A DNA stretch of 52,162 bases from a virus (taxonomy: Duplodnaviria > Caudoviricetes). The notes beneath the pieces are model-generated. The model saw only the letters and a list, made by a program, of their open reading frames with translations, made no database searches and was not told the DNA's origin. Made by a program: the position numbers and the translations under genes. Every line of letters starts with the position of its first letter. Position 1 is the first letter of the stretch. The DNA is taken from positions 1 to 52,162 of IMG/VR virus record IMGVR_UViG_3300043449_000682, one strand, 5' to 3'. This document shows positions 7,538 to 20,494 of this stretch, piece after piece.

Positions 7538-8035
7538 CTAGACGGGCAATATCGGTTGATATTCCTGATTTGCCCATTTCCTTAAATTACATAGTCCGTG
7601 TGCTGGTCTTACATTTTCTAGAGTATCTGAGCCACCCTTTGCAATAGGAACAAGATGATCGATATGCAAACCTTGCTCCCATCCATCAACCCCACATTTT
7701 CGGGGAGCCATAAAGTCAATGGCTAATCCACATAGGTAGCAATCAGTCCCATAAGAAGCAATAACCTGTAGTTCATTATAGTCGTTCGTAATCTTTGCTC
7801 TGCGTCGTCTGCTTTTAGATCGCTCTCGCTCTCTCACCTTATCAAGGTTTGAAGCACGATACTTGGCGGTTACATGAGCACGATTATTTTTGGCATATCG
7901 TAATCTATTATAGACACTTGATGCAGCCAAACACTCTATGCATGGTTTAGTCTTCTGGTTATGGTGTTTGCGATAGCCAGCATAGGTTCCACAGTTGGCA
8001 TATAGCCTATTGTCTATGTCGTTTTTTGTTTCCAT
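7538..8035 (-). CDS. HNH endonuclease
   Basis: CYLCG..HIDHLVPIAKGGSDTLENVRPAHGLCN. Confidence 0.92.
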   Translation of the reverse strand: METKNDIDNRLYANCGTYAGYRKHHNQKTKPCIECLAASSVYNRLRYAKNNRAHVTAKYRASNLDKVRERERSKSRRRRAKITNDYNELQVIASYGTDCYLCGLAIDFMAPRKCGVDGWEQGLHIDHLVPIAKGGSDTLENVRPAHGLCNLRKWANQEYQPILPV

Positions 8036-8118
8036 AGCGAGTCTTAACCTCAGCCTTAGCCTGATCTACAATAGCCTTTGTAATGTCTTCAACACTAAAC
8101 TCTTGGTCGAAGGTTTGT

Positions 8119-8325
8119 TCAGTATCCATTTAGGCACTCATTTCTTGTATGATATAGTCGAATCTTGGTCATTGTCTTTTTGTTTGGGGCATACAATTCT
8201 TCACCACAACAGGCAGTCTTAAGATACCACTCCTTAGCAAAGAAGTCATATATAAGACCCTTAGCGTCAGAGTATTTCTTGGCTACAAAGGTTTGAAATG
8301 GGTCTGGTATTTCCATATTGATCAT
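8119..8325 (-). CDS. hypothetical protein
   Basis: ORF with upstream TTGACA..GATACT promoter-like sequence. Confidence 0.6.
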   Translation of the reverse strand: MINMEIPDPFQTFVAKKYSDAKGLIYDFFAKEWYLKTACCGEELYAPNKKTMTKIRLYHTRNECLNGY

Positions 8326-8361
8326 AGATTAAGTATCCCACATTGGCCAAAGCATGTCAAG

Positions 8362-8389
8362 TGGATAGTTTATACTCATATCCAGGAGT
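8362..8389 (-). ncRNA. repeated H-type pseudoknot motif, copy 1
   Basis: ACTC-CTGGATA-T-GAGT-ATAAAC-TATCCA. Confidence 0.7.
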
Positions 8390-8780
8390 CTCAACCTTTA
8401 CTTTATACACGCTGTTGAGGTAGTCCGTGTCGGTTTTTCGTGGATAGTCACCTACCAAGAAAGGTTGTGAAGGTAATACTCACCATATGGCTTTCGGCTT
8501 CAATACAAGTATAGCGATTATTGCAGATAAAGTCAATAGGGTTAGTCTTCAGGATTAAAATAAGCCATAGCAGACCAGATATCGTTGTAATTATCTAGTT
8601 TGGCTTCTGTTTGATGCTCTTCGATTGTATTATTGTGGGTCATATAATAATTATATCACACACATTAAATCGCTAAAATTTCGGGGGATTTAGAGTGATG
8701 ATCGTAATCCCTAGTATAAGATATAAACCACTATAGGAACATATGCTGGATATGGGGAAATATCCGATGTATCGTAATCT

Positions 8781-8981
8781 TTATTTGCCGTTGGGTTTTA
8801 TAGAGTGTCTGTACTTCCAAACCTTTACACTGAATAAGACCTTTCCTCTGATGACAAACTCAAGTAAGAGATATGTCTTTCGTAATGAACGATCTACTTG
8901 GTACATACGAAAGATACCAGTGCGCTTTAGATATTTAGCCAGATAGTTATATTCCTTTGGACTCAGGTCATCATATATCAT
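8781..8981 (-). CDS. hypothetical protein
   Basis: MIYDDLSPKE... start directly after TGCTATACT extended -10. Confidence 0.45.
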   Translation of the reverse strand: MIYDDLSPKEYNYLAKYLKRTGIFRMYQVDRSLRKTYLLLEFVIRGKVLFSVKVWKYRHSIKPNGK

Positions 8982-8999
8982 GTACTTAGTATAGCAGGA

Positions 9000-9303
9000 A
9001 GTTATCCACAGGGCAAGGTGCTTGGATACCTTAAAATGGATCAAAATAAGGTGTTAGGATACCTTGGTTTGTTAGGCTTTGAATTAAAGTAAATGGCGTT
9101 TTACTTTAAAATAGAGAAATCTTTTAAAGTTTTGGACATAGTTATCCACAGGCTAGTCTCTAAATAGTTCGATTATCCCCCAAGTTATCGCTATGGCTGA
9201 TATGCCAATCATAGCGTAAACCCAGTAGATATACATTGTTGCAAAGTCCATTTGGTCATGATATCATGGTTTTGAATCATAGTTATCCACAGGTTTATCC
9301 ACA
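9000..9303 (+). promoter_or_regulatory. DnaA-box cluster (4 perfect TTATCCACA)
   Basis: 9002-9010, 9142-9150, 9283-9291, 9295-9303. Confidence 0.7.
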
Positions 9304-9425
9304 GATTAATCTTACTGATTATATATTTAGACATTCTAGAAGTGGAGCGATGTGGAGGATAGTGGAGCATAGAGCATATCATAGAAGGGGCGTAATGTCA
9401 AGCGGGGTTTTGAGGACTCTATCAC

Positions 9426-10030
9426 AAACCTCAAACCTTGTCAAACCTCAAACCTCATAGCCCCGATTTGGATGATATCACAGTTATAGTGGTTTGTCAA
9501 ACCTTAAGACCCTATAAAAAAATCCCCTAAAACTAGGGGAAAATTTGCTCATATCGTAATCTTTTTTAATAAAACTATTATGGTTTTTCTAGAAACCAAG
9601 AAGAAATGGTTTGTTATTCTATAGGGGGTAGAAGTTATATGGTTTGGTCTTGATCCCCTGGGATTTCGCCTGGGGCGAATCGGCCTTCGGCCTGATCAAG
9701 TTTAGGGCCCCTGTAAAAATCGGGGGTAAATGAAAAGAAAGGTGACAAACCTATAGCATGTGTAACAGTAACAAAGGTATTCCACATAGAGTCAGAGAAA
9801 GCCCTATATTCTTTTGGCTGTGCTTTTGCATATTGAGCAAAATGATCTCTTCCCATATTTATATTATAACATGGTTTGACAAACCTTGGTTTTCATGATA
9901 TAAGGTTTGGGGATATAAGGTTTGGATCGTAATCTTCTGGAGGGGGAAGGTTTTGGAGGTTCGTAATGTCTGAGGTTGGGGATTTTTTGGATAGGATCGT
10001 AATGTCTTTTGGAAATGAGGTTTGTGGTTT
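9426..10030. repeat. strand-asymmetric AAACCT/AGGTTT repeats, TCGTAA repeats and two GGTTTGWCAAACC palindromes
   Basis: AAACCT at 9426, 9433, 9443, 9450, 9499; AGGTTT at 9903, 9918, 9948, 10018; palindromes 9491-9503 and 9873-9885. Confidence 0.65.
9635..9856 (-). CDS. hypothetical protein
   Basis: ORF with TGTTATAAT just upstream of ATG. Confidence 0.45.
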   Translation of the reverse strand: MGRDHFAQYAKAQPKEYRAFSDSMWNTFVTVTHAIGLSPFFSFTPDFYRGPKLDQAEGRFAPGEIPGDQDQTI

Positions 10031-10078
10031 GTTACAAAAGAGTTTCCGGCCCCCTCGTGAGAGGGGTAGAGACAGAGA

Positions 10079-10351
10079 TTACTCTGTTGCCTCTATCGCC
10101 TCAAACAAGTCCTGCAAGTCGTCAAACCCTGCATCCTCAAAGTTCAACGCTTCCAACAACAAGTCCCATGTCTCATTGATGTATTGCTCAACTGTTGGAG
10201 TCAGATTGATAATTCCTTCTGCATAGCAAAATGCAAGAGGAATCCCGATGTCGTTGTATGCAAAGAAATCTGCCATTTCGTCATCATCTTTATGGTGCAT
10301 CCATACCTGTCCAAGAATTAAAGCCTTGCTTTCAAATGTTGTTGTGGGCAT
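10079..10351 (-). CDS. acidic hypothetical protein
   Basis: SD (GAAGG) and overlap with upstream gene. Confidence 0.75.
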   Translation of the reverse strand: MPTTTFESKALILGQVWMHHKDDDEMADFFAYNDIGIPLAFCYAEGIINLTPTVEQYINETWDLLLEALNFEDAGFDDLQDLFEAIEATE

Positions 10352-10538
10352 AATTTGTACCTTCCTTAGTTTCTTTGGCTGATTCTGCTATTGTCTGTAA
10401 ACGATTATACACTACATAAGGTTGAGACTTGGCTAGGTATTCCCCGACCAATTCTAAATCTACACGAAGGTCAGAAATAATGTTACCCATTTTATTAGCA
10501 ACTTTTTCTTCCTCCGTGATTTGTCTGCTCATACGCAT
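10332..10538 (-). CDS. hypothetical protein
   Basis: SD GGGAG upstream. Confidence 0.7.
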   Translation of the reverse strand: MRMSRQITEEEKVANKMGNIISDLRVDLELVGEYLAKSQPYVVYNRLQTIAESAKETKEGTNYAHNNI

Positions 10539-10632
10539 AGTTTCTCCCTTGTATCAATTGTATCAAAAAGTGGGGGAAAGAGCAAGCCCCACGCTTGCCC
10601 CCTCCACCCGATTAGCCTAGGTGACCCAATAC

Positions 10633-10980
10633 CTAGACTAGCGCTGGGCTATAAGCAGCCACAAATTTATCGAAAGCCACTGAAACATTATCAGTGATAG
10701 TATTGTTAGTGAAGTCAATGAGGATGGTTTGTTCGCCTAGGTCATAGCCATCATTATCAATAGCGTAGATTCCAAACCCTGTTTCCTCTAGAATGCTATC
10801 TTGAATAAGATAACTAATAATCATGCGGGTCCCATAGGATGAGTCTGATAGTCTAGGCTTAGCATGTTGAAGTGCCATTGCCAGGTCCCGCTGCCATTCC
10901 GTCTGGCCCCAGTGACTGTATAGAACTACCATTGGGCCCTGCTCACTGTCTTTAAATACAAAGTTGATCCGTGCTCCCAT
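10633..10980 (-). CDS. hypothetical phage protein
   Basis: Stop/start coupling; LYSHWG motif. Confidence 0.75.
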   Translation of the reverse strand: MGARINFVFKDSEQGPMVVLYSHWGQTEWQRDLAMALQHAKPRLSDSSYGTRMIISYLIQDSILEETGFGIYAIDNDGYDLGEQTILIDFTNNTITDNVSVAFDKFVAAYSPALV

Positions 10981-11318
10981 TAGTCTTGCTCCTCATTCAT
11001 GTCGCCCTCAAAGTCAATAACTACTTTAGTAACTCTGCCGTCCTCGTTCATCTGAACATAGACAGGGTAGTATCCGTCGCCATAGCCTGTGCTAAACACA
11101 ACAGCAGAACCCCTAGCGAGTTCGCCATAGGCGTTTTCAATTGTCGTGGCTGAAGCACCTTGATATGTGTAAGTGCCTACTTTACCTTCTAAGTTCCACT
11201 CGACGCCTTCGTCTGTTTTCCATTGGTCAAGATAGCAGGGGTCACCCACCATTGCTTGTCCTGAGTCTACCGAAAAGTATCCTGCGGTGATAAGATTATC
11301 TACTACATATTGGGTCAT
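10980..11318 (-). CDS. DUF4241-like protein
   Basis: VDSGQ..GDPCY and STGYGDGYYPV motifs. Confidence 0.6.
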   Translation of the reverse strand: MTQYVVDNLITAGYFSVDSGQAMVGDPCYLDQWKTDEGVEWNLEGKVGTYTYQGASATTIENAYGELARGSAVVFSTGYGDGYYPVYVQMNEDGRVTKVVIDFEGDMNEEQD

Positions 11319-11767
11319 TATTTTTCCGTTCCTGTTGGGGTAATTTCTTCTTGTTCTAATTTTAGCATTTCTTCCTCAGTAATGCAAATTGGGCAACGCT
11401 CATGCTCATAGTATCTTTCATTAATTAGTTGGCCATCATCTTCAATCTCAGCCCCGCAACCTTCGCAGTAGTACCAATATGAAGATACCTTAACTTGAAT
11501 AGTAGTATTATCAGGGAAAGGAACCTCAGTGATAAAGTATCCTATTCGATTAACAAATCCCCAGCCAGACCAGATGTAAGACCCACCATCGTCCCCATCG
11601 CCATACATCCAGATATGTTTTTCATTAGACTGTTTAACAAACTCATACTCATCGCCATAAGTTTCAAACATTAAACCATCGAATGAGGCATTAGTGTCTA
11701 TATGATTAGTGATTGGCTTGTAGGTCTTAACGAAGTCGTCAAAGTCCATCTCAATAAATGTATCCAT
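11318..11767 (-). CDS. hypothetical protein with C-terminal CxxC..CxxC
   Basis: Upstream TTGACA-17-TATACT promoter. Confidence 0.75.
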   Translation of the reverse strand: MDTFIEMDFDDFVKTYKPITNHIDTNASFDGLMFETYGDEYEFVKQSNEKHIWMYGDGDDGGSYIWSGWGFVNRIGYFITEVPFPDNTTIQVKVSSYWYYCEGCGAEIEDDGQLINERYYEHERCPICITEEEMLKLEQEEITPTGTEK

Positions 11768-11966
11768 GTGGGGTATCTTTCTATTAGGGTATATCTAAGT
11801 ATAACGGGTTGGGGCTAATCTGTCAACTTCATACGGATAATGTCATAGGCATCGATGGCTCCCGCCGTATAGTCGTCCATCTCATAGTCACCCTCACCCT
11901 GATACTCATCACGCAGTAGGGTTAGTTCTTCAATACGCCCTTCAACAAACGCTAACAGATCGATAC

Positions 11967-12248
11967 TCATTCTCCTGCCTCCTTAGCACTAATAGCAAAC
12001 GATAGGTCATATGTTAGTTTATACATGTGTACATAAGCGTCTAGAATACCCTCTGCATACTTACGCTCTATAGATAGCATAGCGTCTGAGTAGTCGTCTG
12101 CTTCTTCTTGTTTAACTAATTCATCATACTCTTGCTCAGCAATGAGGATTTGATTCTTTAGTTCACCGTGCATGATATCAAGACCTGATACTCCTGCCTT
12201 GACCATACGCTCTAGGTGTGGGTCTATCTTGTCTGCTGATTCTTTCAT
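11967..12248 (-). CDS. hypothetical protein
   Basis: AAAGGAG SD and upstream promoter. Confidence 0.75.
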   Translation of the reverse strand: MKESADKIDPHLERMVKAGVSGLDIMHGELKNQILIAEQEYDELVKQEEADDYSDAMLSIERKYAEGILDAYVHMYKLTYDLSFAISAKEAGE

Positions 12249-12271
12249 AGGGTCTCCTTTGTTATTTATTA

Positions 12272-12293
12272 AGTATATCTTGGGCTACTGACA
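12272..12293 (-). promoter_or_regulatory. PafBC/RecA-NDp-type promoter
   Basis: TGTCAG-N10-TATACT. Confidence 0.65.
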
Positions 12294-12428
12294 AAATATG
12301 GCGGGATGTCTCAATCTCTGCCTGCTTAAGTCTATAGAAATGATAAGCATTAACATAGTCAATCTTCTCTAGGTCTTGATGAAGGCTAACGAGATGTATC
12401 TTTATATATTCAATTAACTCATCAAACA

Positions 12429-12614
12429 TTAGTCTTCTGTCTCCCCGTCTTCGTCCTCATCTTCTTCTGGTTGCTCATCAACTCTAATAGAATAAACCTC
12501 ACCTGAGTAGGAATAGTCTTCATAGTGCCAGCCTAGTTCTTCTGCTTCTTGTGCGTTCTCTGCTTCTACCTCGTAGTTATACTCTACGATTACTTTGATA
12601 TCATATGTTGGCAT
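12429..12614 (-). CDS. small acidic protein
   Basis: GAGGTGG SD; YEVEAENAQEA motif. Confidence 0.7.
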   Translation of the reverse strand: MPTYDIKVIVEYNYEVEAENAQEAEELGWHYEDYSYSGEVYSIRVDEQPEEDEDEDGETED

Positions 12615-12771
12615 TTATGCCACCACCTCTGTAATAGTTAGCCAAGTGGTGCAGTACTTACAGTGCTCCATTTTTAGCGGGGAAGTAACAGAATGAGTAC
12701 TATCTATAATATCCTCAATCTTATCTAATACATCATCTAGAGTCATTGATGAATCTCCTTTTCCTTATATA

Positions 12772-12984
12772 TTAATTATAGGGGTTGGTGTTGATTTTTA
12801 CAACTTCTGGGGATGTGATGTTAGTCACAGTCTCCTGGACAGTGGCATCTTCCCATCCTAACAGGATCAGTTCATTAGGATAATCACACACACAGGTAGG
12901 GGTGTTCTTAAAATCCTGGGTAGTGACCTCAAAGAGGGTATCGCAGTGGGTACAGATAAGATTATACTTAAGCCAGTTAGTCAT
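12772..12984 (-). CDS. Cys-containing hypothetical protein
   Basis: CTHC..CVC, coupled to upstream gene. Confidence 0.6.
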   Translation of the reverse strand: MTNWLKYNLICTHCDTLFEVTTQDFKNTPTCVCDYPNELILLGWEDATVQETVTNITSPEVVKINTNPYN

Positions 12985-13163
12985 TAGAGCCTTCCTTCTA
13001 AATTAACAGATTCACATTCAGCACAAGTGCCATTGGATACATCATCATACCAGTCAGTCTCTACATCTAGCAAGTTGCCCTGATCATCATAAACACCCAA
13101 TTTATGAGATGTTTCGTCATACCAAAACTTACTGGTTTGACCACAGTCTAAACACTTAGGCAT
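12984..13163 (-). CDS. small zinc-ribbon protein
   Basis: CLDC..CAEC; start re-assigned to MPKC. Confidence 0.65.
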   Translation of the reverse strand: MPKCLDCGQTSKFWYDETSHKLGVYDDQGNLLDVETDWYDDVSNGTCAECESVNLEGRL

Positions 13164-13512
13164 TATTCCCCCAATGTAGCATAATAAGCCACATGGCTTG
13201 GTGCAGGGTACAGTCACATTCTCCACCATTCATGTTTTCCATGAAGTCAAAGTGAGAGTAGTTATCCTCATAGATAGAGGTTACGAGTTCGTCGATAGTA
13301 TAGGGTTTATATTTTGTTTGGGTCATATATCAATTATACGCCCATAACCTGGGAAATGTCAACTCTATCGTAAAGAATTTTTGGTTTGACATTTTTAGGG
13401 GAAAAGGTTTGTCTATCGTAATTTAATTTAACATTGACATTTTTATGTCCAAATTGCCCTATTTGTCCTGCCGGAAAAATTTTATGCATTGCAGTGCATA
13501 TTTATTTACTTG

Positions 13513-13586
13513 CGATCCGTACGGGACTTGAACCCGTGACCTCTACCGTGACAGGGTAGCGAACTAACCAACTATTCTAACGGACC
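13513..13586 (-). tRNA. trnD: tRNA-Asp (GTC)
   Basis: GGTCCGT/ACGGATC acceptor, CTACC-CTGTCAC-GGTAG anticodon arm, GGTTCAAGTCC T-arm. Confidence 0.93.
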
Positions 13587-13590
13587 ATGC

Positions 13591-13617
13591 GAGCAGTTTT
13601 AAATCGTGCTCAGGATT
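13591..13617 (-). ncRNA. repeated H-type pseudoknot motif, copy 2
   Basis: AATC-CTGAGCA-C-GATT-TAAAAC-TGCTC, 4 nt before tRNA-Asp. Confidence 0.75.
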
Positions 13618-13631
13618 AATTGTATCAGATG

Positions 13632-14654
13632 CTATGCGAGTTGCATAACATTCTGCACAACTTTCAGCAAACGATTTTTTTCTGCGTTAATTGCAGGGTC
13701 AAATCCTGATGCTGATGCAAGGATAGATTCGTTAGAACCACCACGAGCAGAGCGGTACCAGTCAAGGCGTTCAGTAAGAGCGTTAAATGCACCCCAAGCA
13801 GAACCAGCAATCATGCCATTAAACTCACCTGTGTAGATGTCGTTAATGGTGTCGATTTTGTTTTCCCACTTCTTGAGTGCGCCCTTAGCATCTTTCTCAG
13901 GCTTTGGGTATGCAGCGAGAATGATGTCATTGAAAGACTTAGCATTGACTTCCTTCTCGAACATAGCCTTAGCCATGATGTCGAACTCGTCCATGTAAGC
14001 ATTAGCAAGACCAAGAGTCTCACGAGCAATCTGCACCTTGCCTGATGCAGTCTGAGTGTGGCGAATCTTGAAAGATTGCTTGATGCCCTTATTCTTCTTA
14101 CGACCTACGCCACCAAGAGCAAGGTTAAGAGTGTTAGCGCATACAACACGAACAGGGGTAATAGATGCCTGAATAGCAATAGAACCGTCGTGTGATGTGT
14201 TGATGAGCAAATAAGTTTTTACCTTATCTGCAACACCGCTAGGGTCAAGAACAGTTTCACGCTCTAGTGCAAGAGAGCCGAATACTACACGACCACCCTT
14301 GATTGAGCCAGCAGTTTCCCAACGACCTCCGCCGTCAAGAATGTTGTCACCGAATGAGAATAAATCTTCATTCTGCATTACATGGTAACGCTCACCAACG
14401 ACACCAAGAATGTCGGTCTGCGTGTTGTCAGTAGGATTGGTACGCAATACATACTGATAGTTTTTATCGCTTGTGAGATGTGAGGGGGTTTCCAAATCTT
14501 CCAGACGAACATTCCAACCATTAAGATTAGCAGCAGCCAACATTTCTGATGTGGTTTTTTCTTCTGTAAATACGGTACCCAATCCATGCCAAGCGGGTTC
14601 ACGGAATGATGCAAATGATGCAACGCCGTTTTGTGTTTCGAGGTCATGTGCCAT
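13632..14654 (-). CDS. DUF932 (phage/plasmid TIGR03299-like) protein
   Basis: MAH..REPAWHGLG, GVVGERYHVMQN, ETAGSIKGG, NTSHDGS, TPVRVVCANTL. Confidence 0.9.
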   Translation of the reverse strand: MAHDLETQNGVASFASFREPAWHGLGTVFTEEKTTSEMLAAANLNGWNVRLEDLETPSHLTSDKNYQYVLRTNPTDNTQTDILGVVGERYHVMQNEDLFSFGDNILDGGGRWETAGSIKGGRVVFGSLALERETVLDPSGVADKVKTYLLINTSHDGSIAIQASITPVRVVCANTLNLALGGVGRKKNKGIKQSFKIRHTQTASGKVQIARETLGLANAYMDEFDIMAKAMFEKEVNAKSFNDIILAAYPKPEKDAKGALKKWENKIDTINDIYTGEFNGMIAGSAWGAFNALTERLDWYRSARGGSNESILASASGFDPAINAEKNRLLKVVQNVMQLA

Positions 14655-14685
14655 GAGTTTTCTCCTTTTTGTTGTTGATAATTTA

Positions 14686-14707
14686 AGTATACATGGGGGG
14701 TCTGACA
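14686..14707 (-). promoter_or_regulatory. PafBC/RecA-NDp-type promoter
   Basis: TGTCAG-N10-TATACT upstream of DUF932. Confidence 0.65.
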
Positions 14708-14840
14708 AATGCAAATCGGGATAGTTAGATATGGTATAAATCGGACATTTTTACGGGGTGTCGTAAATCACATCGTAAACATCAGCGTGTCCGCTTGACA
14801 AGATCAAAAAAGGGGCCGGAAAAATTTTGGGAATAAAAAG

Positions 14841-14870
14841 TGAGCAGTTTACATGGCCATGCTCAGGGCC
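14841..14870 (-). ncRNA. repeated H-type pseudoknot motif, copy 3 (degenerate copy adjacent at 14874-14901)
   Basis: GGCC-CTGAGCA-T-GGCC-ATGTAAAC-TGCTCA. Confidence 0.75.
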
Positions 14871-14916
14871 CTCATCCAGTTTAAAGACATTTGACAGGTC
14901 TATTAGTAGCCCCCTA

Positions 14917-15348
14917 CTAAAAATCAATTCTGTCTACACTGGCGGTAAGCCAAGTGATGTTATCAGAATTATATGAAACTGATTCAAAGTCAACATCGTT
15001 AACAATTGATTCTACATCTTCATCGTATGGAACCTGAAGTGTTAGGTTATAGGTGACTGAGACTTCGACTTCAACTTCCTTAGTAAGTTCAAAGCCCATT
15101 ATCTCTGCAATGTCTGTTGCTTGACTTTCTGTAATTGCATCACGCTCTAGTTCTGCCAAGGTCCAGTGCTGCATTCCTTCAACCATACGGTTACGGTCCG
15201 CTGAATCTGAATATGAGCGCTGAGTTACTTTTTGAATCTGTTCTTCTAACTGAGCAATCCGCTGGTCCTTCTGCACAATCTGAGTCTTAAGAAATTCCTC
15301 TGTTGCGTTTACTACGCCTGCAAGTGTTGATAGGTTCTGCTGGTCCAT
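14917..15348 (-). CDS. hypothetical coiled-coil protein
   Basis: SD GAAAGAGG, upstream promoter. Confidence 0.8.
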   Translation of the reverse strand: MDQQNLSTLAGVVNATEEFLKTQIVQKDQRIAQLEEQIQKVTQRSYSDSADRNRMVEGMQHWTLAELERDAITESQATDIAEIMGFELTKEVEVEVSVTYNLTLQVPYDEDVESIVNDVDFESVSYNSDNITWLTASVDRIDF

Positions 15349-15378
15349 GGGGGCCTCTTTCTGTTGTTGTTTATATTA

Positions 15379-15408
15379 ATTATACTCGTGGCCACTGACA
15401 ATTGTCAA
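15379..15408 (-). promoter_or_regulatory. dual promoter (TTGACA-18-TATAAT overlapping TGTCAG-N10-TATAAT)
   Basis: TTGACAATTGTCAGTGGCCACGAGTATAAT. Confidence 0.7.
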
Positions 15409-15421
15409 GGACCCTTGCGGG

Positions 15422-15447
15422 AGGCAGTTTTGGCTCTTACCTAGGAG
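15422..15447 (-). ncRNA. repeated H-type pseudoknot motif, copy 4
   Basis: CTC-CTAGGTA-A-GAG-CCAAAAC-TGCCT (compensatory changes in stem 2). Confidence 0.65.
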
Positions 15448-15561
15448 GTCTGCTTCTTTGGGGCTGCAGTACCCCTGCTCTATAGTATTTCTGTGATCGC
15501 CCTAATCAGCCTGGCGAAGTCTCCACTCTATTTATTTAGCCACGCATTTCTGTGGTCGTGG

Positions 15562-15589
15562 TGAGCCTTTTCCCTTCATGCTCAGGAAG
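15562..15589 (-). ncRNA. repeated H-type pseudoknot motif, copy 5
   Basis: CTTC-CTGAGCA-T-GAAG-GGAAAA-GGCTCA. Confidence 0.7.
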
Positions 15590-15610
15590 TATTATTCTCG
15601 TTATTGAGAA

Positions 15611-16027
15611 TTATAGGTATTGTGCGATAGACTTCATAGTTGAGGCATTTACTGTTTCCTCATCTGTCATTCGCAAAATAGATAGTGCGTTAGTGATTTC
15701 CTGCTTCATGTTCTTGTATTCCCACTCTGCAAGTCGCTCATGCTCACGCTGAGGCTCTTGTGGGAAGTCTGCGCCTGTTGTATCAACATCAAAGTCAATG
15801 TTGAGTGTGTTAGCCCATGTGCGGTGATTTGTGCGGAAGTTAGAAGCCTTCTTGATGTTAGCAATAGCGTAGTCAGTTAGAGCCTTACGATACTTCTCGT
15901 ATTCCTTCTGATACTTTGCTTCTACTTTTTCCTGATTTGCCATTTGTGTTTCAAGTGTAGCCAACTTAGTTTCAAGTGCCTTGATAACCTTTGGTGTTGC
16001 TACCTTAACTGTGATTGCTCTTGCCAT
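15611..16027 (-). CDS. hypothetical protein
   Basis: Start re-assigned to MARAIT after AAAGGAAA SD. Confidence 0.8.
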   Translation of the reverse strand: MARAITVKVATPKVIKALETKLATLETQMANQEKVEAKYQKEYEKYRKALTDYAIANIKKASNFRTNHRTWANTLNIDFDVDTTGADFPQEPQREHERLAEWEYKNMKQEITNALSILRMTDEETVNASTMKSIAQYL

Positions 16028-16061
16028 GTGGGTCGTTTCCTTTTCTGTTAGGGGGTTAGGT

Positions 16062-16089
16062 TGAGCAGTTTTCATTCATGCTCAGGAAT
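16062..16089 (-). ncRNA. repeated H-type pseudoknot motif, copy 6
   Basis: ATTC-CTGAGCA-T-GAAT-GAAAAC-TGCTCA. Confidence 0.75.
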
Positions 16090-16100
16090 AACTATTTAGA

Positions 16101-16265
16101 CTACTTAGCCGTCCAAGTTGTGTAGCGTGATGAACCATTTACATCTAACTTAACACGAACATTACCATTAGCCTGTGGGTTAATCTCGGTAATGATACCT
16201 GTAACCTTTGACTTCTGTGTTGTGAAAGTGTCGCCTACCTTGTATGTTGCTGTTGCTACTGCCAT
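16101..16265 (-). CDS. small SH3/KOW-like protein
   Basis: YKVGDTFTTQKSKVTG; start re-assigned to MAVAT. Confidence 0.7.
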   Translation of the reverse strand: MAVATATYKVGDTFTTQKSKVTGIITEINPQANGNVRVKLDVNGSSRYTTWTAK

Positions 16266-16388
16266 TTGTTTATTTCCTTTTCTGTTAGGGGTTTTTCTGT
16301 ATGTATTAAGTGTAACATTTTTTCTGACATTTTCCAAATCCATTTACTAATAATCTCAAAATGTGAGACATTATTAGTGTGATTTAGG

Positions 16389-16559
16389 TCACTTGCTTGT
16401 CTTGACCATAGCGAAGCGGTGTGCGCCATTTGCAAGTTGCAATGAAACTCTAGTTAGTTTAGAATTGATTGGTGTAAAGTTTTTAATTCGTCCTGTTACA
16501 CCTGTCTTGCTTGTTGTGAATAGGTCACCGATTTGGTAAGTGTATCCGTGAAGTGTCAT
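16389..16559 (-). CDS. small SH3/KOW-like protein (tandem paralog)
   Basis: YQIGDLFTTSKTGVTG; start re-assigned to MTLHG. Confidence 0.7.
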   Translation of the reverse strand: MTLHGYTYQIGDLFTTSKTGVTGRIKNFTPINSKLTRVSLQLANGAHRFAMVKTSK

Positions 16560-16793
16560 TTGGGTCTTGCCTTTCGTTGTGGGGGTTAATTGCTTATAGT
16601 ATAAGTCTAACAGAAAAATGTCAGAAATACCAATTCTAAGGGGGTTTTTGGGTGTGTCCTTAATCACATCTTAAAGGCGTGTCCAAACTTGACAAATCAA
16701 AAAAAATCTCCGGCCCTTTCGGGATCATTGAATAAGAAATATAAAAAACAATAACCAAAATAAAAATATTATTTGAAGTGAATTCACTCTAAC

Positions 16794-17525
16794 TCATTTC
16801 TTAGTCGCAGAGAATACGACATCACTCTTAGAGTATACACAAAGTGAACAAGAAACGCAAGCAGAGCCTGCATTGCTAATTAATGGAATGCGTTTTGCAT
16901 TTTCAGGACACTTAGCGCCAGGTTTATTTGTTAACGCTTTCATGTCTGCCTGGCCCTCTGCAAAATTCTTAGCAAGGTATGCTAATTTAATTCCATGCTC
17001 AGTTTTTAGACCAATTCCAATTGCTTTGTTTTCACTATCAGTGGAATAATATAAAGATAGATTAGGCTGGTCCTTAAGCATAAGCGCTGCAGATTCTACA
17101 CGAGTGTATACCCAAAATTGTACAAAACGATAATCCATGATTACTTGCTTCCAGGCATATGCATATGTATCGCTAAAGAAATCTCCGTCCCAGTGGATAC
17201 GGAATAGCAATGGTGCGTCTTTCTTTGCACAATCTTTAATAAAATCTACGATCATTTCCTTAAGTAGGATGACCATAGTTTCATAGTCTGCGTCTTTGAG
17301 TAGGTCCCAGTTATGGAGTAGGTTAGTCTTTACTCCTGGGAATATCTTTTCCAATTTACCTGCATAGCAAACAGTCTCGCAGACAGTCGTTGCGCCAGGA
17401 CATGAATAGTTCTTTCCTGCGGGTAGTCCGAAAGTGTTTGCGATACTTGCTTGCTTTCCATTAGGTGTGACAAGGTTAGCCACCTTTCTATCTTTAGAGC
17501 GCAGTAGTTTAGCAGTCAAGGCCAA
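16794..17525 (-). CDS. gene product 88 (GP88)-like, radical-SAM-like Cys-cluster protein
   Basis: SCPGAT.VC..VCYA, FRIHWDGDF, FWVYTR, C-terminal CVSCSLC. Confidence 0.75.
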   Translation of the reverse strand: MALTAKLLRSKDRKVANLVTPNGKQASIANTFGLPAGKNYSCPGATTVCETVCYAGKLEKIFPGVKTNLLHNWDLLKDADYETMVILLKEMIVDFIKDCAKKDAPLLFRIHWDGDFFSDTYAYAWKQVIMDYRFVQFWVYTRVESAALMLKDQPNLSLYYSTDSENKAIGIGLKTEHGIKLAYLAKNFAEGQADMKALTNKPGAKCPENAKRIPLISNAGSACVSCSLCVYSKSDVVFSATKK

Positions 17526-17721
17526 GGCTCATTTCTAACGCAATGTCTTCGTTGTATGTTGCAGACATTTCTTCCAATAGGCAATGGGTGCACATTTCTT
17601 CAACCTCATCGACAGAGTTTTCTTTGCATGAGGGGCAAGTAGTTTCATAGTATTCATCTAGGTATTCATCGTTTTCGAATGTCATGGGGGCACGACCTTT
17701 CTTAGTTGTTGTTATATTTTA

Positions 17722-17743
17722 AGTGTAGCATTTCTGACTGACA
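17722..17743 (-). promoter_or_regulatory. PafBC/RecA-NDp-type promoter
   Basis: TGTCAG-N10-TACACT. Confidence 0.6.
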
Positions 17744-17892
17744 TTTTCTACCCTTGCGAGTATATTTCTTTTTAGAAGGCACGGCAGAGGCAGCGTTGCT
17801 ACGGCGTAGTTCCATAAGCCTGCGTAATTCCTCTGGTGTTTTCTTCATATAATAATCTTAGCACACTAGGGAAAAAATATCAACTTCTTAAA

Positions 17893-17908
17893 TGTGACAA
17901 ATCTCACA
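17893..17908. promoter_or_regulatory. CRP-type box
   Basis: TGTGA-CAAATC-TCACA. Confidence 0.7.
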
Positions 17909-17974
17909 CTAATCACGACACGCCCGAACGAGCCGGAAATTTTTGTGCGGGGAAGCACACAAAAACTTTTTAAA

Positions 17975-18220
17975 CTATTCTTCTTCTTCTTCAATAAAAA
18001 CATATAACGGAATTGAATCAGTGTAACTATACTGTGTGACTTCTCTTTCACCGAATTCGTTTTCTGTTTGTATGTCGTAGTTATCTCCTGTTGAATCACT
18101 TTCAATAAAAGTAACTTCAACTATGTCGTCACCAATTTTAATTAAATCACCAAGCATTAGTTGGTCTGGTGTTAAATCATCTGCGTGGATCAATTCCATA
18201 GTTTCCATTGTATCAGACAT
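17975..18220 (-). CDS. acidic hypothetical protein
   Basis: GGAGG SD, abuts upstream gene. Confidence 0.7.
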   Translation of the reverse strand: MSDTMETMELIHADDLTPDQLMLGDLIKIGDDIVEVTFIESDSTGDNYDIQTENEFGEREVTQYSYTDSIPLYVFIEEEEE

Positions 18221-18505
18221 TTAGTCCTCCCAATCAGGTAGCCAGAATGATAAGTGATGCTGTTCAACAATCGCACTTGCAGGGGCTTGAGTTTCTCCAC
18301 GATAGAGAATCTGAAAGTCACCAACCTTTGGCATATCAATCATGCGCTGATAGTCTTCGTCATAGTAGGCGTCGATGGCTTCGATGCATGGCGTTACCAT
18401 TTCTGCGGGGACTGGAGGATAGTGATTACCCTTTAAGTGATAAAGAATCTGAGTCTCAAGGTCCAATACTGTATCCTGAATTCCTAATGCTGTTACTGCT
18501 CCCAT
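18221..18505 (-). CDS. hypothetical phage protein
   Basis: HLKGNHYPPVP motif; start re-assigned to MGAVT. Confidence 0.75.
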   Translation of the reverse strand: MGAVTALGIQDTVLDLETQILYHLKGNHYPPVPAEMVTPCIEAIDAYYDEDYQRMIDMPKVGDFQILYRGETQAPASAIVEQHHLSFWLPDWED

Positions 18506-18720
18506 TATGCAACCACCTTTACTGTTCCGTTTCGATAAAATAACTTGGTGTAACACTTGCCTGTTGGCGTGTGCAGATTAACTGTGCGATATTCTTTAGC
18601 CATTCCCCAATCGGTGAATAGAAAGAAGTTCTCCCATGCGCCATATTCTTTTTCATAGCGTTGTGTCCAATGAGGGGCTTCGCCGTCATAGGCACTTGTG
18701 ATTACATATTCATAGTCCAT
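18505..18720 (-). CDS. hypothetical protein
   Basis: SD GAGG and coupling. Confidence 0.7.
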   Translation of the reverse strand: MDYEYVITSAYDGEAPHWTQRYEKEYGAWENFFLFTDWGMAKEYRTVNLHTPTGKCYTKLFYRNGTVKVVA

Positions 18721-19029
18721 TAGTTAGCCTCTTTCGTTGTAAATAGTGCGCCTTCATTAAGTAAGCCTAACTCTAAATTAAATAATTCATCGCTATTGGC
18801 TTGTGCTAAGTCTATCCAACCTGCACCATCGTTGTCCATTCTAAAAATCTCAATGTATCCCATTAGTGTTGTTCCTCGCAATCAGTAGAATAATCAAACT
18901 CACAATAGTAGCAACCCATTTGCTCGCCATGCTCTTTGCAGACATAGACAAACTGGCTTTCGTCACAACAAAATTTAATTTCATCTTTAACAAAATAAAA
19001 TTCGTTTTGATCAATGTATTCCTTTATCA

Positions 19030-19230
19030 TTATTCACCAACCTTTACTGCGAGATAGCGGTATGTATCTTTAATTGAATTGTAGGGGCGTACTTGAACGA
19101 AGTATGTATCGCAATCCTTGTACCATACATTATTATTTAATTCAGCGGAGATAATTTCTCCCTGAACAGAGTTAGAGCGATAGGACTTGCCCACTAAGAG
19201 GCTTTCGATAGTATAGACATTTGCTGACAT
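19030..19230 (-). CDS. hypothetical protein
   Basis: GAAAGGTG SD. Confidence 0.7.
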   Translation of the reverse strand: MSANVYTIESLLVGKSYRSNSVQGEIISAELNNNVWYKDCDTYFVQVRPYNSIKDTYRYLAVKVGE

Positions 19231-19262
19231 TAGTTGTCACCTTTCTTTTTCTTGATAATACT

Positions 19263-19284
19263 ATCCTAGCCTATGGGACTGACA
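19263..19284 (-). promoter_or_regulatory. PafBC/RecA-NDp-type promoter
   Basis: TGTCAG-N10-TAGGAT. Confidence 0.6.
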
Positions 19285-19333
19285 TTTCTCTACTTACTAG
19301 GCAGTAATTCCAAACTTTGAGACGCTCAGGCCA

Positions 19334-19349
19334 TGTGATAAGGGTCACA
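19334..19349. promoter_or_regulatory. CRP-type box
   Basis: TGTGA-TAAGGG-TCACA. Confidence 0.7.
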
Positions 19350-19466
19350 CCAAAATGTCCGTTTTGTCTGTCAAATCGACACGCCGTAAACTGTGAAAAT
19401 TTTTCTTTGATCTTAAACATAGTGTTTCCCACACCCTGTGGATAACTTTCAGGGCCGGAAAATTTT

Positions 19467-19494
19467 TGAGCAGTTTTGAATCTTGCTCAGGATC
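19467..19494 (-). ncRNA. repeated H-type pseudoknot motif, copy 7
   Basis: GATC-CTGAGCA-A-GATT-CAAAAC-TGCTCA. Confidence 0.75.
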
Positions 19495-19781
19495 ACAATT
19501 TACTTTTGCAAATCGTTTTTGATTTCTTGCCAATCTTCTTTTAGCATTGGCAACATCATGCGGAATAAAACAAAAACGCTACCAACTAAAAATAGTTGAA
19601 CGATTGTTGTGATTAGTCTATTCATTACAAGCCTCCATAAATTTTTCCATTTTGAAATTTGGGTTATCTTCTGCGAACCAAAACGCAAAGTCATCGATTA
19701 AAATATCTAATCGGCAAGTATCGCCTTTTGAGTGCTTTGAAATAATTTTAGCAACCTCTATGTAGTCTTTGCGAGTCATCA

Positions 19782-20039
19782 TTATGCAACCCCCACCAAT
19801 TCTAGGAACATTTCAGTGCCCCCCTCATTGATTACATAGACTTGCTTTTCAATTGAAGCCCAAGACATATCTTCGATGTCTGGCATTAGTTCATCAATTG
19901 CGTCAGTGTTCATTTTGATAAACTGTTCTTTGATTGCAACAATTTGCGGTAGGTAGCGAGAAGTCTCGGCCACCTTTGAAATAAACTGATAGCCCTTATG
20001 TTCAAAAGGGAAGATAGCGAATGCAACTTTGTTAGTCAT
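19782..20039 (-). CDS. hypothetical protein
   Basis: Start re-assigned to MTNKV (coupled to upstream stop). Confidence 0.7.
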   Translation of the reverse strand: MTNKVAFAIFPFEHKGYQFISKVAETSRYLPQIVAIKEQFIKMNTDAIDELMPDIEDMSWASIEKQVYVINEGGTEMFLELVGVA

Positions 20040-20309: not shown

Positions 20310-20494
20310 TGTGATACTAGTCACATTTATTTGCTAAGGCTCATTGCTTTATTTAGACATTATTTAATTGTATAAGAGAATCTTATCACAAAAATGTCAA
20401 AAAGTCAAGTCTAAACACGGCGTGTCGTATGTGATTAATCTCACATTGGTTATACACAGCCTGTGGATAACTTTTTGGAGGCCGGAAAAATTTT
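20310..20494. promoter_or_regulatory. composite cassette: CRP boxes (20310, 20430), GGCGTGTC (20419), paired DnaA boxes (20450, 20462), GCCGGAAAAATTTT (20481)
   Basis: Motifs read directly from the sequence. Confidence 0.7.

Follow-up and report, generated by a model that had tools for sequence, protein, structure and literature searches.

A widespread, compact RNA pseudoknot that follows stop codons in phages and prophages

A 52,162-nt stretch of viral DNA (IMG/VR record IMGVR_UViG_3300043449_000682; "the window") contains seven copies of an element of about 27 nt that, judged by its sequence, folds into a compact H-type RNA pseudoknot. The knot is a very widespread module rather than a peculiarity of this phage: at least 119 viral contigs of IMG/VR and at least 118 genome contigs carry the same H-type pseudoknot of 27 nt. 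It follows stop codons on the coding strand, and we tentatively propose that it acts as a cap at the 3' end of the upstream cistron.

The first-pass annotation had reported seven copies on the minus strand of the window, and all of them are present at those places. For all seven, the minus strand is the coding strand. The source phage is a freshwater phage, and the seven knots lie just behind the ends of early genes. Each copy consists of S1a (NNNC), CU, S2a (5 nt ending in A), one nucleotide (N), S1b (GNNN), L3 (ending in AAAC), and S2b. The training set of a covariance model (R1) included six window copies but not copy 5; bit scores below are from this model.

8363-8389, minus strand: pseudoknot copy 1; stem 1 ACTC/GAGT, variant stem 2 GGATA/TATCC; 22.3 bits (training member)
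13512-13586, minus strand: tRNA-Asp (GTC), directly downstream of copy 2
13591-13617, minus strand: pseudoknot copy 2; stem 1 AATC/GATT, stem 2 GAGCA/TGCTC; 36.7 bits (training member)
14842-14870, minus strand: pseudoknot copy 3; stem 1 GGCC/GGCC, loop 3 of 8 nt, then the T run ACTTTTTATT (read directly from the sequence); 29.2 bits (training member)
14874-14901, minus strand: decayed copy at best; stem 1 AGAC/GTCT and AAAC kept, 9-nt loop, stem 2 lost; 6.3 bits, E 6.6
15422-15448, minus strand: pseudoknot copy 4; stem 1 CTC/GAG, variant stem 2 AGGTA/TGCCT; 22.6 bits (training member)
15562-15589, minus strand: pseudoknot copy 5; stem 1 CTTC/GAAG, stem 2 of 4 pairs (GAGC/GCTC), linker GGAAAAG; 14.8 bits, E 0.05 (outside the training set)
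16063-16089, minus strand: pseudoknot copy 6; stem 1 ATTC/GAAT; 36.3 bits (training member)
19468-19494, minus strand: pseudoknot copy 7; stem 1 GATC/GATT with one G-U pair; 36.7 bits (training member)

The scores of the six training copies (22-37 bits) are circular, but copy 5, which the model had not seen, stands out from the next match in the window (9.4 bits). A degenerate eighth copy had also been claimed at 14874. Its stem 1 and AAAC are indeed there, but we grade it as a decayed copy at best because it has a 9-nt loop, no stem 2, and a score of only 6.3 bits. A strict word pattern for the knot matched the window three times, versus no matches in 100 shuffles. Similarly, CCTGAGCA occurs six times on the minus strand; five of these occurrences are copies of the knot, and stem 1 is paired in all five. 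A structure-aware scan found six copies on the minus strand and, on the plus strand, two weak look-alikes without the AAAC linker. There are seven copies in 11 kb of the window, and they are dispersed: we found no tandem array of knots there.

In the knot, stem 1 is 4 bp long and stem 2 is 5 bp; loop 1 (CU) has 2 nt, a single nucleotide forms the junction, and loop 3, about 6 nt long, ends in AAAC. Hundreds of homologues outside the window strongly support the suggestion that the element acts as RNA, not as a DNA site, and is an H-type pseudoknot whose stems covary and whose loop 3 is A-rich. Our exact search pattern left the three outer pairs of stem 1 free. Among the viral matches listed, the inner two free pairs were kept in 147 of 147 and all three in 123 of 147; among the genome-contig matches listed, the inner two were kept in 100 of 121. 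The pairs themselves vary (among the matches listed, TA 142, AT 83, and CG 21 at one position and GC 142, AT 49, CG 30, and TA 26 at the next). In copies whose 5' arm of stem 2 departs from the consensus, stem 2 is fully paired in 39 of 55, versus 1 of 55 if the next 5 nt are used as a control. We saw 15 distinct pairs of stem-2 arms, including GGACA/TGTCC, GGGTA/TACCC, AAGCA/TGCTT, GGCCA/TGGCC, and GGGCG/CGCCC. Covariation thus strongly supports both stems and hence the predicted fold. Stem 1 varies freely, while the loops, the junction, and stem 2 are near-invariant (this conservation of words is partly imposed, as the loci were fetched by conserved words). By nearest-neighbour energies, stem 1 alone is worth +0.4 to -2.2 kcal/mol and stem 2 alone -1.8 to -3.9 kcal/mol in six of the seven window copies. 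Lone helices this weak are also the typical look of a ligand aptamer.

The first-pass annotation could not place the element in a known RNA family, and we found no match to the pseudoknot in Rfam 15. It is apparently an undescribed RNA module of phages and prophages. The cultured phages that carry it infect cyanobacteria, Paracoccus, Mycobacterium, Arthrobacter, Bacillus, Lactobacillus, and Streptococcus, and the hosts of knot-bearing phages span many phyla. The carriers include T7-like phages, T4-like phages, and siphoviruses. Many phages have a single copy (for example ParMal1, S-RIM4, and Labelle). Where there are several, they obey a one-strand rule (all copies are on one strand in 47 of 50 multi-copy loci) and cluster in islands of small genes, with 8 copies in 5 kb of one contig and others with 4 in 1.4 kb or 3 in 1.3 kb. 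The genes that flank the knots are unrelated (DUF932, HSP20, SNase, RNR, scaffold).

What the loci share is the link to the upstream stop codon. We measured how far stem 1 lies from the stop codon of the longest ORF upstream (at least 70 codons). This gap has a sharp floor at 5 nt and is most commonly 5-9 nt. In the viral set (n = 184, with 33 lacking such an ORF nearby), there was one case at 0-4 nt and there were 21, 13, 6, 11, and 10 cases at 5, 6, 7, 8, and 9 nt; in the genome set (n = 114, with 44 lacking such an ORF), there were 9, 8, and 8 cases at 5, 6, and 7 nt. The tail extends beyond 100 nt, and the distance from the knot to the next start codon is far looser. In annotated cultured phages, the gap is 6 nt in ParMal1, 10 nt in S-RIM4, and 6 nt in Labelle, in each case on the coding strand. 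There is also one class of instances in which a UGA inside the knot is the stop codon, so there the ribosome must melt the knot.

As had been noted for the window, five of its copies follow a stop codon at about 5-50 nt. Copy 7 lies 5 nt past the TAA of a 64-aa ORF, which is also the floor of the spacing seen elsewhere. Copy 6 lies 11 nt past the TAG of an 80-aa ORF and about 35 nt upstream of an ATG at 16027; copy 2 starts 14 nt after the TAG of a 360-aa DUF932 ORF; and copy 5 lies 21 nt past the TAA of a 154-aa ORF. Copy 3 is 46 nt from a stop codon, with the decayed copy (15 nt past the TAG of a 143-aa ORF) in between. Copies 1 and 4 have no clear ORF directly upstream. A promoter-like site (8360-8332; TTGACA, 17 nt, GATACT, with a TG) begins 2 nt downstream of copy 1, and a sigma-70-like site (15408-15379, 12/12) begins 13 nt downstream of copy 4. 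With these sites so close behind, copies 1 and 4 cannot belong to the downstream transcript.

Several kinds of predicted RNA ends lie just behind the knot. Copy 2 was correctly described as ending 4 nt before tRNA-Asp, whose 5' end is the RNase P site. Across 301 instances and 117 tRNAs, a same-strand tRNA begins 4-14 nt downstream in 21 instances, and only 2 have a tRNA whose end lies within the 100 nt upstream. These 21 cases are not independent, because 15 are tRNA-Asp and many are from relatives of the window phage. A pattern for the 3' half of the knot followed by a hammerhead core matched 19 viral contigs, of which 18 have the knot (17 perfect and one with a stem-2 mismatch); the reverse order matched 14 contigs, none with a pseudoknot. 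The predicted cleavage site is mostly 5-8 nt behind the knot. The Rfam model Hammerhead_3 confirms six type III hammerheads that abut a knot (L161 twice, L258, L259, L260, and L264), and two more in the same contigs have no knot. Runs of at least 5 T within 12 nt behind the knot were found in 42 of 299 instances, versus 3-9 of 299 at six control offsets. Other neighbours include a twister-like match near a knot, the DUF2800 RNA (a structured RNA downstream of knots), an SD and a start codon within 45 nt (87 of 301 instances), and, in some instances, a canonical terminator 10-15 nt behind. In most instances there is no recognisable cut site. The RNA data were assembled contigs. In one of these, with a depth of 2.9, copy 2 is fused to the gene that precedes copy 7; one side of this joint covers 25 nt.

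The knot resembles several known systems in part. Like the preQ1-I riboswitch aptamer (RF00522), it is a very small H-type pseudoknot with a variable stem 1, conserved loops, an A-rich 3' linker into a short stem 2, and weak helices. Unlike that aptamer, it has no Rfam match, its junction is 1 nt and its stem 2 is 5 bp, it follows stop codons instead of preceding queuosine genes, and its stem 2 covers no Shine-Dalgarno site. Read-through pseudoknots and the compact frameshifting knots of luteovirids (BWYV type) measure about 28 nt; their loop 1 has 2 nt, their junction has 1 nt, their loop 3 is rich in A, and they start 5-9 nt behind the A-site codon. The phage knot matches them in size, loop 1, junction, loop 3, and spacing, but its reference codon is an ordinary stop that ends unrelated ORFs, an overlapping or extended frame is not evident, and tRNAs, ribozymes, promoters, or T runs lie behind it. 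Structures that stabilise 3' ends, such as the RNase III-processed hairpins of T7 early mRNAs, REP hairpins, and terminator hairpins, lie between cistrons, behind a stop codon and before a processing point, and are proposed to be barriers to 3' exonucleases. They share the position and the proposed role of the knot, but they are long or G+C-rich and have no fixed sequence, whereas the knot is a 9-bp pseudoknot with near-invariant loops that is shared across phyla. The exoribonuclease-resistant RNAs of flaviviruses and plant viruses (xrRNA, coremin) also use a small knotted fold as a mechanical block, as we propose for the knot, but they block the 5'-to-3' enzyme Xrn1 in eukaryotes, and the putative block by the phage knot is to 3'-to-5' enzymes. 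A link between frameshifter knots and nuclease resistance is reported in PMC10321173. The acceptor-arm pseudoknot of tymovirus tRNA-like structures likewise puts a stacked helix at an RNA 3' end, but an ACCA tail lies behind just 16 of 299 knots, and there are no further tRNA-like parts.

The spacing could instead reflect an encounter with the ribosome. A knot at the mRNA entrance of a ribosome on the stop codon might act on termination or on the steps after it, blocking read-through or post-termination sliding and so shielding downstream genes or structured RNAs (tRNA, ribozyme, or DUF2800 RNA) from translation of the upstream gene. The 5-nt floor and the 5-9 nt mode match the spacing of recoding pseudoknots, the knot is built like a compact frameshifter (2-nt loop 1, 1-nt junction, and A-rich loop 3), and structured RNAs lie directly behind some knots. 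We doubt this role, as the gap is a floor with a tail beyond 100 nt and not a fixed distance, copies 1 and 4 follow no clear ORF, and there is nothing to insulate behind those knots that precede promoters, T runs, or convergent genes. We also think it unlikely that the knot is a tiny "terminal" riboswitch or operator that needs a small ligand, an ion, or a conserved protein as its partner in order to fold and then switches termination, decay, or downstream expression. A free stem 1 beside near-invariant loops, junction, and stem 2 is what the smallest known aptamers show, the two helices are marginal, and spread across phyla would call for a universal partner. However, fetching the loci by conserved words imposes part of this conservation, the genes nearby share neither a function nor a candidate for the partner, the carriers are as different as T7-like phages, T4-like phages, and siphoviruses, and the knot is tied to the upstream stop codon and not to a downstream start. 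The knot may bind a ligand or protein; its helices are weak alone.

T runs 0-3 nt behind the knot are about 5-10 times commoner than at control offsets, and the early region of the window has canonical terminator-like sites at no more than chance level (11 versus 8.2 expected), which would fit a knot whose stem 2, stacked on stem 1, replaces the hairpin of an intrinsic terminator. This is rather improbable, given that 86% of instances have no T run, some have a separate canonical terminator behind them, and a stem of 5 bp that closes an 11-nt loop makes a poor terminator hairpin. It seems very unlikely that the knot is primarily a module boundary, with 27 nt of gene-end homology that shuffles cassettes between phages and an RNA fold that is secondary. 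The clustering in islands of small genes and the RNA contig joining copy 2 to the gene before copy 7 would fit, but that contig is a single low-depth joint, homology is broken by the differing stem 1, and it leaves the compensatory changes in two stems, the strand rule, and the 5-nt floor unexplained. We give equally little credence to the idea that the knot is a small self-cleaving ribozyme of a new kind, which would separate the genes of polycistronic RNA. New ribozymes have been discovered in such neighbourhoods: the knot is a phage element with a pseudoknot in its conserved core, beside hammerheads and near a twister-like match. But all known natural self-cleavers are far larger, and self-cutting would make a hammerhead or tRNA directly behind it redundant. 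The first-pass annotation had also raised a ToxI-like decoy; such an antitoxin RNA would counter an endoribonuclease toxin of the host. Type III antitoxin RNAs such as ToxI are small pseudoknotted units in phage-related DNA, and the knot is likewise small and present in several copies in a phage. But ToxI units stand in tandem ahead of a toxin gene, whereas the knots are dispersed or single and behind varied ORFs, with no recurring toxin gene among the neighbours, and we consider this idea scarcely credible.

The other functions suggested at the outset, an end protector or processing signal, fit the context: the stop-codon link, followed by tRNA 5' ends, hammerhead sites, and T runs. Reasoning from position only, our best reading, held tentatively, is that the knot is a 3'-terminal cap that stops 3'-to-5' decay before it reaches the stop codon. 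Several observations sit awkwardly with a cap: in some instances a canonical terminator 10-15 nt on makes a second protector seem redundant, most instances have no recognisable cut site behind the knot, the class with its stop codon inside the knot requires melting by the ribosome, and two of the hammerheads have no knot. Because the helices are weak alone, a block to exonucleases would depend on tertiary contacts or a bound partner. As a cap, the knot would belong to the 3' end of the upstream cistron and would be set as near behind the stop codon as a terminating ribosome permits (at least 5 nt, perhaps reflecting the ribosome's footprint), so that it could stay folded during translation. 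The transcript would often end or be cut within a few bases behind it, by RNase P at a tRNA 5' end, by self-cleavage of a type III hammerhead, or at a U tract. The knot and its short tail would then halt 3'-to-5' exoribonucleases ahead of the stop codon, with a possible effect on mRNA half-life, and the upstream message would stay intact and still be able to terminate normally.

All seven pseudoknots (knots) that the first-pass annotation had claimed were confirmed on the minus strand, at the positions it assigned:

8363-8389 (-), copy 1
13591-13617 (-), copy 2
14842-14870 (-), copy 3
15422-15448 (-), copy 4
15562-15589 (-), copy 5
16063-16089 (-), copy 6
19468-19494 (-), copy 7
14874-14901 (-), a decayed copy, 3 nt upstream of copy 3

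Common layout of the copies, 5' to 3'
Stem 1, 5' arm: NNNC
Loop 1: CU
Stem 2, 5' arm: 5 nt with a final A (GAGCA five times, GGATA and AGGTA once each)
Junction: one base
Stem 1, 3' arm: GNNN
Loop 3: AAAC at its end
Stem 2, 3' arm: last element

These are not chance matches: a strict word pattern matches the window 3 times versus 0 in 100 shuffles; five of the six minus-strand occurrences of the word CCTGAGCA in the window are knot copies; and a covariance model scored copy 5, which was outside its training set, at 14.8 bits, versus 9.4 bits for the best unrelated match. The copy that had been called degenerate does keep stem 1 and AAAC, but its stem 2 is gone (6.3 bits, E = 6.6).

The window (G+C content of 38.8%; its 52,162 bp are the entire assembly for this virus) has a block of small genes on the minus strand up to ~22 kb and, beyond that, structural genes on the plus strand; the plus-strand genes include tail fibres, ribonucleotide reductase, portal, and head protease. 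The nearest named relatives of the portal protein are from Streptomyces phages (49% identity). Near-identical DNA is present in freshwater metagenomes, and megablast of 13000-17000 against named phages gave no match.

It is strongly supported that the knots are a real structured RNA family that is missing from Rfam 15. We fetched loci with a pattern that fixed the conserved words and placed no constraint on the outer three stem-1 pairs, so the conservation of those words is inflated. Among the viral matches listed, the inner two free pairs form in 147/147 and all three form in 123/147; among the genome contigs listed, the inner two form in 100/121. The chance expectation for two pairs is ~14%. 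U-A, A-U, C-G, and G-C pairs are all represented. For stem 2, we considered extra copies in the same loci, at fixed geometry and with stem 1 present, whose 5' arm was not GAGCA. Stem 2 was fully paired in 39 of these 55 copies, versus 1 of 55 if the next five bases were used as a control; there were 15 different arm pairs, and each of the five positions was changed somewhere. An alignment of 140 distinct copies has changes on both sides in 8 of the 9 pairs (the percentage of paired positions in this alignment is partly circular, as pairing was used to choose its rows). These results uphold the original claim of a covarying pseudoknot. G-U pairs occur, the element is always on the coding strand, and all copies are on the same strand in 47 of 50 multi-copy loci, so this is a structure of RNA, or at least of a single strand.

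The helices themselves are marginal. In six of the seven window copies, stem 1 alone has a predicted energy of +0.4 to -2.2 kcal/mol and stem 2 alone has -1.8 to -3.9 kcal/mol. Given these energies and the near-invariance of loop 1, the junction pair, and AAAC, the fold is probably compact and held by tertiary contacts or by a partner.

The element is far more widespread than could be seen from the window. One exact pattern, built from the consensus words, matched at least 119 contigs in IMG/VR and at least 118 contigs from bacterial or archaeal genome assemblies. The genome matches listed are mostly from metagenome-assembled genomes of many groups: Saccharibacteria and other candidate phyla, Lachnospiraceae, Lactobacillaceae, Paenibacillus, Clostridium, Cyanobacteria (Calothrix), Actinomycetes, Desulfobacterota, Aminicenantes, Anaerolineae, Bacteroidota, Verrucomicrobiota, and Spirochaetota. 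The element is also on two contigs that were binned as Methanobrevibacter. About 15 of the 121 genome matches listed are due to chance (they lie inside genes and stem 1 is unpaired). With short BLAST queries, we located the element in intergenic regions of very different cultured phages: Paracoccus phages ParMal1 and ParKuw1 (Autographiviridae); cyanophages S-RIM4 and S-EIVl; Microcystis phage Mwe-JY13 and Nostoc phage NMeng1; Mycobacterium phage Labelle; Arthrobacter phage Molivia; Bacillus phages WH1 and Edson; Lactobacillus phage JNU_P7; Celeribacter phage P12053L; and Streptococcus prophages. One of the nearest named relatives of the window phage, Streptomyces phage Jay2Jay, lacks the motif (its 1 match to a loose pattern equals the reversed-control count), and a 39-nt instance, with one stem-1 variant, was unmatched in 5,426 genomes of E. 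coli. Five whole genomes have one small island each, with 8 knots in 5 kb, 4 in 1.4 kb, 3 in 1.3 kb, 2 in 0.6 kb, or just 1. In a Selenomonadaceae contig (L204, 2150-4150), there are 7-8 knots in 5 kb, some of them separated by only 90-200 nt; obvious ORFs are scarce between the knots, and a canonical terminator lies 6 nt behind one.

The first-pass annotation also placed most copies just behind stop codons. This is correct for five window copies (gaps of 5, 11, 14, 21, and 46 nt) and appears to be a property of the family. The distance from the stop codon to the knot has a sharp floor, while the distance to the next start codon is far looser.

Gap from the stop codon of the upstream ORF (at least 70 codons) to the first base of stem 1
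Viral instances (n = 184): no nearby ORF end of 70+ codons, 33; 0-4 nt, 1; 5, 6, 7, 8, and 9 nt, 21, 13, 6, 11, and 10
Genome instances (n = 114): no nearby ORF end of 70+ codons, 44; 0-4 nt, 0; 5, 6, 7, 8, and 9 nt, 9, 8, 8, 1, and 4

The annotated phages ParMal1, S-RIM4, and Labelle have the knot on the strand of the coding sequence before it, at gaps of 6, 10, and 6 nt, and in Lactobacillus and Streptococcus phages it lies between the head gene and the scaffold gene. The mRNA exits the channel of the ribosome about five bases past the A-site codon, so the floor implies that the knot is never where a terminating ribosome must melt it.

There is an exception. In at least 16 genome loci, a tiny ORF ends at a UGA inside the knot, with a canonical terminator behind. 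This ORF is conserved, with ~20-26 codons and a Cys-rich C-terminus (M-K/R-R-F/Y-x-V/I-P-R-x-A/S-H-C-x-x-G-C...S), and synonymous third-base changes suggest that it is translated. It is found in genome contigs L128, L134, L142, L150, L170, L172, L177, L181, L187, L191, L197, L200, L210, L211, L231, L237, and L238, often behind a glutamine-amidotransferase-like gene, and the peptide has no NCBIfam family. The internal UGA also ends some longer ORFs, six of them from genome contigs and one from a viral contig. We considered selenocysteine insertion or read-through at the UGA of the tiny ORFs and dropped it, as the "codons" downstream are merely the motif.

What lies behind the knot is often a cut site. 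In 21 instances, there is a tRNA gene on the same strand whose start is 4-14 nt behind the knot (Asp 15, Ser 3, Arg 2, Gln 1); a tRNA whose end is at most 100 nt before the knot is seen in only 2. The tRNA-Asp cases are not independent, as many are from relatives of the window phage. A joined pattern of the knot's 3' half and the hammerhead core matched 19 viral contigs. The knot is present in 18 of these and, by eye, a three-stem type III hammerhead is present in 17; in the reverse order, 14 contigs matched, with no knot and no convincing ribozyme in any of them. Stem III of the hammerhead starts 0-15 nt behind the knot, so the predicted cleavage site is mostly 5-8 nt behind it. Rfam's Hammerhead_3 model confirmed six ribozymes that abut knots (E = 2e-8 to 8e-3, with two above the gathering score); two more hammerheads in the same contigs lack a knot. 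Also, strong promoter-like sites start 2 nt behind copy 1 and 13 nt behind copy 4, and a Shine-Dalgarno sequence and a start codon lie within 45 nt behind 87 of 301 instances. Flanking ORFs (488, clustered) were in lineage-specific families only, with no common partner protein or theme.

Several other elements lie nearby. A DUF2800 RNA lies 1-2 nt behind the knot in two contigs (L192, 5407-5592 (+), 156 bits; L229, 5051-5236 (-), 153 bits). In viral contig L252, a type-P1 twister-like match (2027-2086 (+), 50.6 bits, E = 2.5e-8, below the gathering score of 67.2) is ~800 nt upstream of a knot-plus-hammerhead unit. In the window, the word AAAATTTTTCCGGCCC is behind copies 3 and 7 (14813-14835 (-) and 19435-19465 (-)) and at 20460-20487 (-), with TCCACAGG ~10 nt after it in two places; similar words are behind the knots of relatives (L003, L007, L012, L015, L084, and L115). 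TTCCGGCCC with at most one mismatch occurs 9 times versus 2.6 expected. The AAAATTTTTCCGGCCC/TTCCGGCCC word may be a phage-specific promoter or operator. The hairpin TTTAGTAGGGGGCTACTAATA at 14901-14923 (-) overlaps the stop codon of a 143-aa ORF and recurs verbatim before knots in L003, L028, and L115. Within the ORF-poor region 8400-9650, at 8988-9312 (+), (AG)TTATCCACAG(G) occurs four times; three of the occurrences are 140-141 nt apart and one is 12 nt further on. TTATCCACAG equals the DnaA-box consensus, and with its neighboring short repeats, this region looks like a candidate replication origin.

We compared 8000-20000 to four freshwater metatranscriptome runs; the matches are assembled contigs from relatives, which are silent on RNA ends and whose gaps in cover are uninformative. 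The 113-nt non-coding stretch between copies 5 and 4 (15449-15561 (-)), which has three small hairpins and a repeated CACAGAAAT, is at a depth of ~20 in two runs, and may be a small RNA that is bracketed by two knots.

As the first-pass annotation supposed, the motif does not belong to a known RNA family: Rfam 15 has no match on any window copy. With the gathering cut-off, the whole window yields only 5 tRNAs; with E ≤ 10, 13400-16200 yields tRNA and four chance-level eukaryotic matches. Nor did Rfam 15 match the motif itself in 53 motif loci (gathering cut-off) or 17 loci (E-value searches), where the only families adjoining knots were tRNA, Hammerhead_3, and DUF2800. We did not find a description of the motif in the full-text literature, where sequence figures and supplementary motif lists are beyond the reach of text searches. 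Passages of PMC10690425, the Minerva preprint, and PMC6765202, and the main text of the 2017 survey (PMC5737381), do not mention such a motif. It may have been listed earlier, for instance among the RAGATH candidate motifs, which were found near twister and hammerhead genes.

Architecturally, the nearest counterparts of the knot are the smallest aptamer knots (preQ1-I) and the compact frameshifter knots of luteovirids. In its proposed role, it is closest to the 3' stabilizing hairpins of T7 early mRNAs and to REP elements, and it resembles viral exonuclease-resistant RNAs by analogy only. It does not have all of the defining features of preQ1-I, of the T7 or REP hairpins, or of exonuclease-resistant RNAs. 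preQ1-I riboswitches are in the 5' UTR of queuosine or preQ1 genes and their stem 2 sequesters the ribosome-binding site. We rejected this identity because the genes that flank the knot are varied and the knot is tied to the upstream stop codon; the Shine-Dalgarno sequence, where present, is 10-40 nt farther downstream. tRNA-like elements have NCCA at the 3' end, right after a stacked helix; ACCA is behind just 16/299 knots (a single A is behind 178/299), so we do not consider the knot to be a mimic of the acceptor arm.

Of the functions that had been suggested, an exonuclease-blocking end protector or processing signal is the best-supported idea; it would fit the stop-codon floor and the cut sites behind the knot. 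Given the RNase P and hammerhead cuts and the promoter directly behind the knot, the position of the element implies that it is the 3'-terminal part of the upstream cistron. We tentatively propose that it is a 3' cap that guards the upstream message. Cutting by RNase P or the hammerhead would part the knot from the downstream RNA, and the upstream piece would keep the knot and a few trailing bases. There, the compact knot would be impassable to 3'-to-5' exonucleases. Since it would lie just beyond the ribosome's reach, the stop codon would survive and termination would stay normal. Of the mechanisms compatible with the floor, with the cut sites, and with the breadth of hosts, a 3' cap is the simplest. 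A simple plug is disfavored by the weak helices, by the many instances with no visible cut site, and by the separate terminator behind some knots.

Another proposal, which we consider unlikely, is that the knot, rather than being a passive plug, would be a universal 27-nt sensor at the mRNA entrance of the ribosome (a terminal riboswitch or ribosome-contacting module) that responds to a ligand, to Mg2+, or to the terminating ribosome. Depending on the state of the knot, the message would be kept, cut, or terminated, or the next gene would be read. A ligand or protein aptamer and a ribosome-linked insulator or termination element are each unlikely as well. Frameshift or read-through elements have a slippery heptamer or a leaky stop 5-9 nt upstream and a frame that encodes an extended or overlapping product; here, the spacing from the stop codon fits, but tRNAs, hammerheads, promoters, or T runs lie directly behind.

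Intrinsic terminators are stable G+C-rich hairpins with a U tract directly behind. A run of at least five Ts is found within 12 nt of only 42/299 knots, and the helices are weak (-1.8 to -3.9 kcal/mol), so the knots in general are not terminators. At six control offsets, such runs are found for just 3-9 of 299; this enrichment is real, so a subset of knots may act as intrinsic terminators. That the knot is a surrogate for the terminator hairpin in the T-run subset is quite unlikely, in our judgment. We give very little credence to the knot being a new self-cleaving RNA. Nor do we consider it to be part of a hammerhead ribozyme. Hammerheads have three stems around a conserved catalytic core, which the knot lacks; over 90% of knots have no hammerhead, and the Hammerhead_3 matches are separate units that start at, or 2-3 nt inside, the last bases of the knot. 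A recombination boundary is similarly very unlikely. An RNA contig from a relative in one run (X17, depth 2.9) joins 13616 to 19504 with 22 other letters between, and so connects copy 2 and its tRNA with the gene that precedes copy 7. This single weak joint hints that relatives differ by knot-bounded modules. Finally, a ToxI-like decoy, as had been suggested, is extremely unlikely. ToxI units are in tandem directly upstream of an endoribonuclease toxin gene. The copies in 8000-20000 are dispersed, with no tandem array, and the closest full copies (5 and 4) have 113 nt of other sequence between them; ParMal1, S-RIM4, and Labelle, which are complete phage genomes, have exactly one copy each, and the neighboring proteins are varied.

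Even if it has another function, this is a well-supported RNA family that is new to Rfam 15, and the 5-nt floor is a clean and testable tie between the ribosome's footprint and an RNA structure. If the sensor proposal were true, then no smaller widespread class of regulatory RNA would be known, and this one would be the first in bacteria and their phages to act from a position behind the stop codon. If the knot is a 3' cap, then many unrelated phage families, and the prophage-like islands of many bacterial phyla, would share one tiny and portable RNA part for the ends of messages. It would keep the upstream piece usable when polycistronic phage RNA is cut by RNase P or a hammerhead, it could serve as a 27-nt stabilizer or insulator in synthetic operons, and it would provide both a partner and a role for the many phage hammerheads that lack an explanation.
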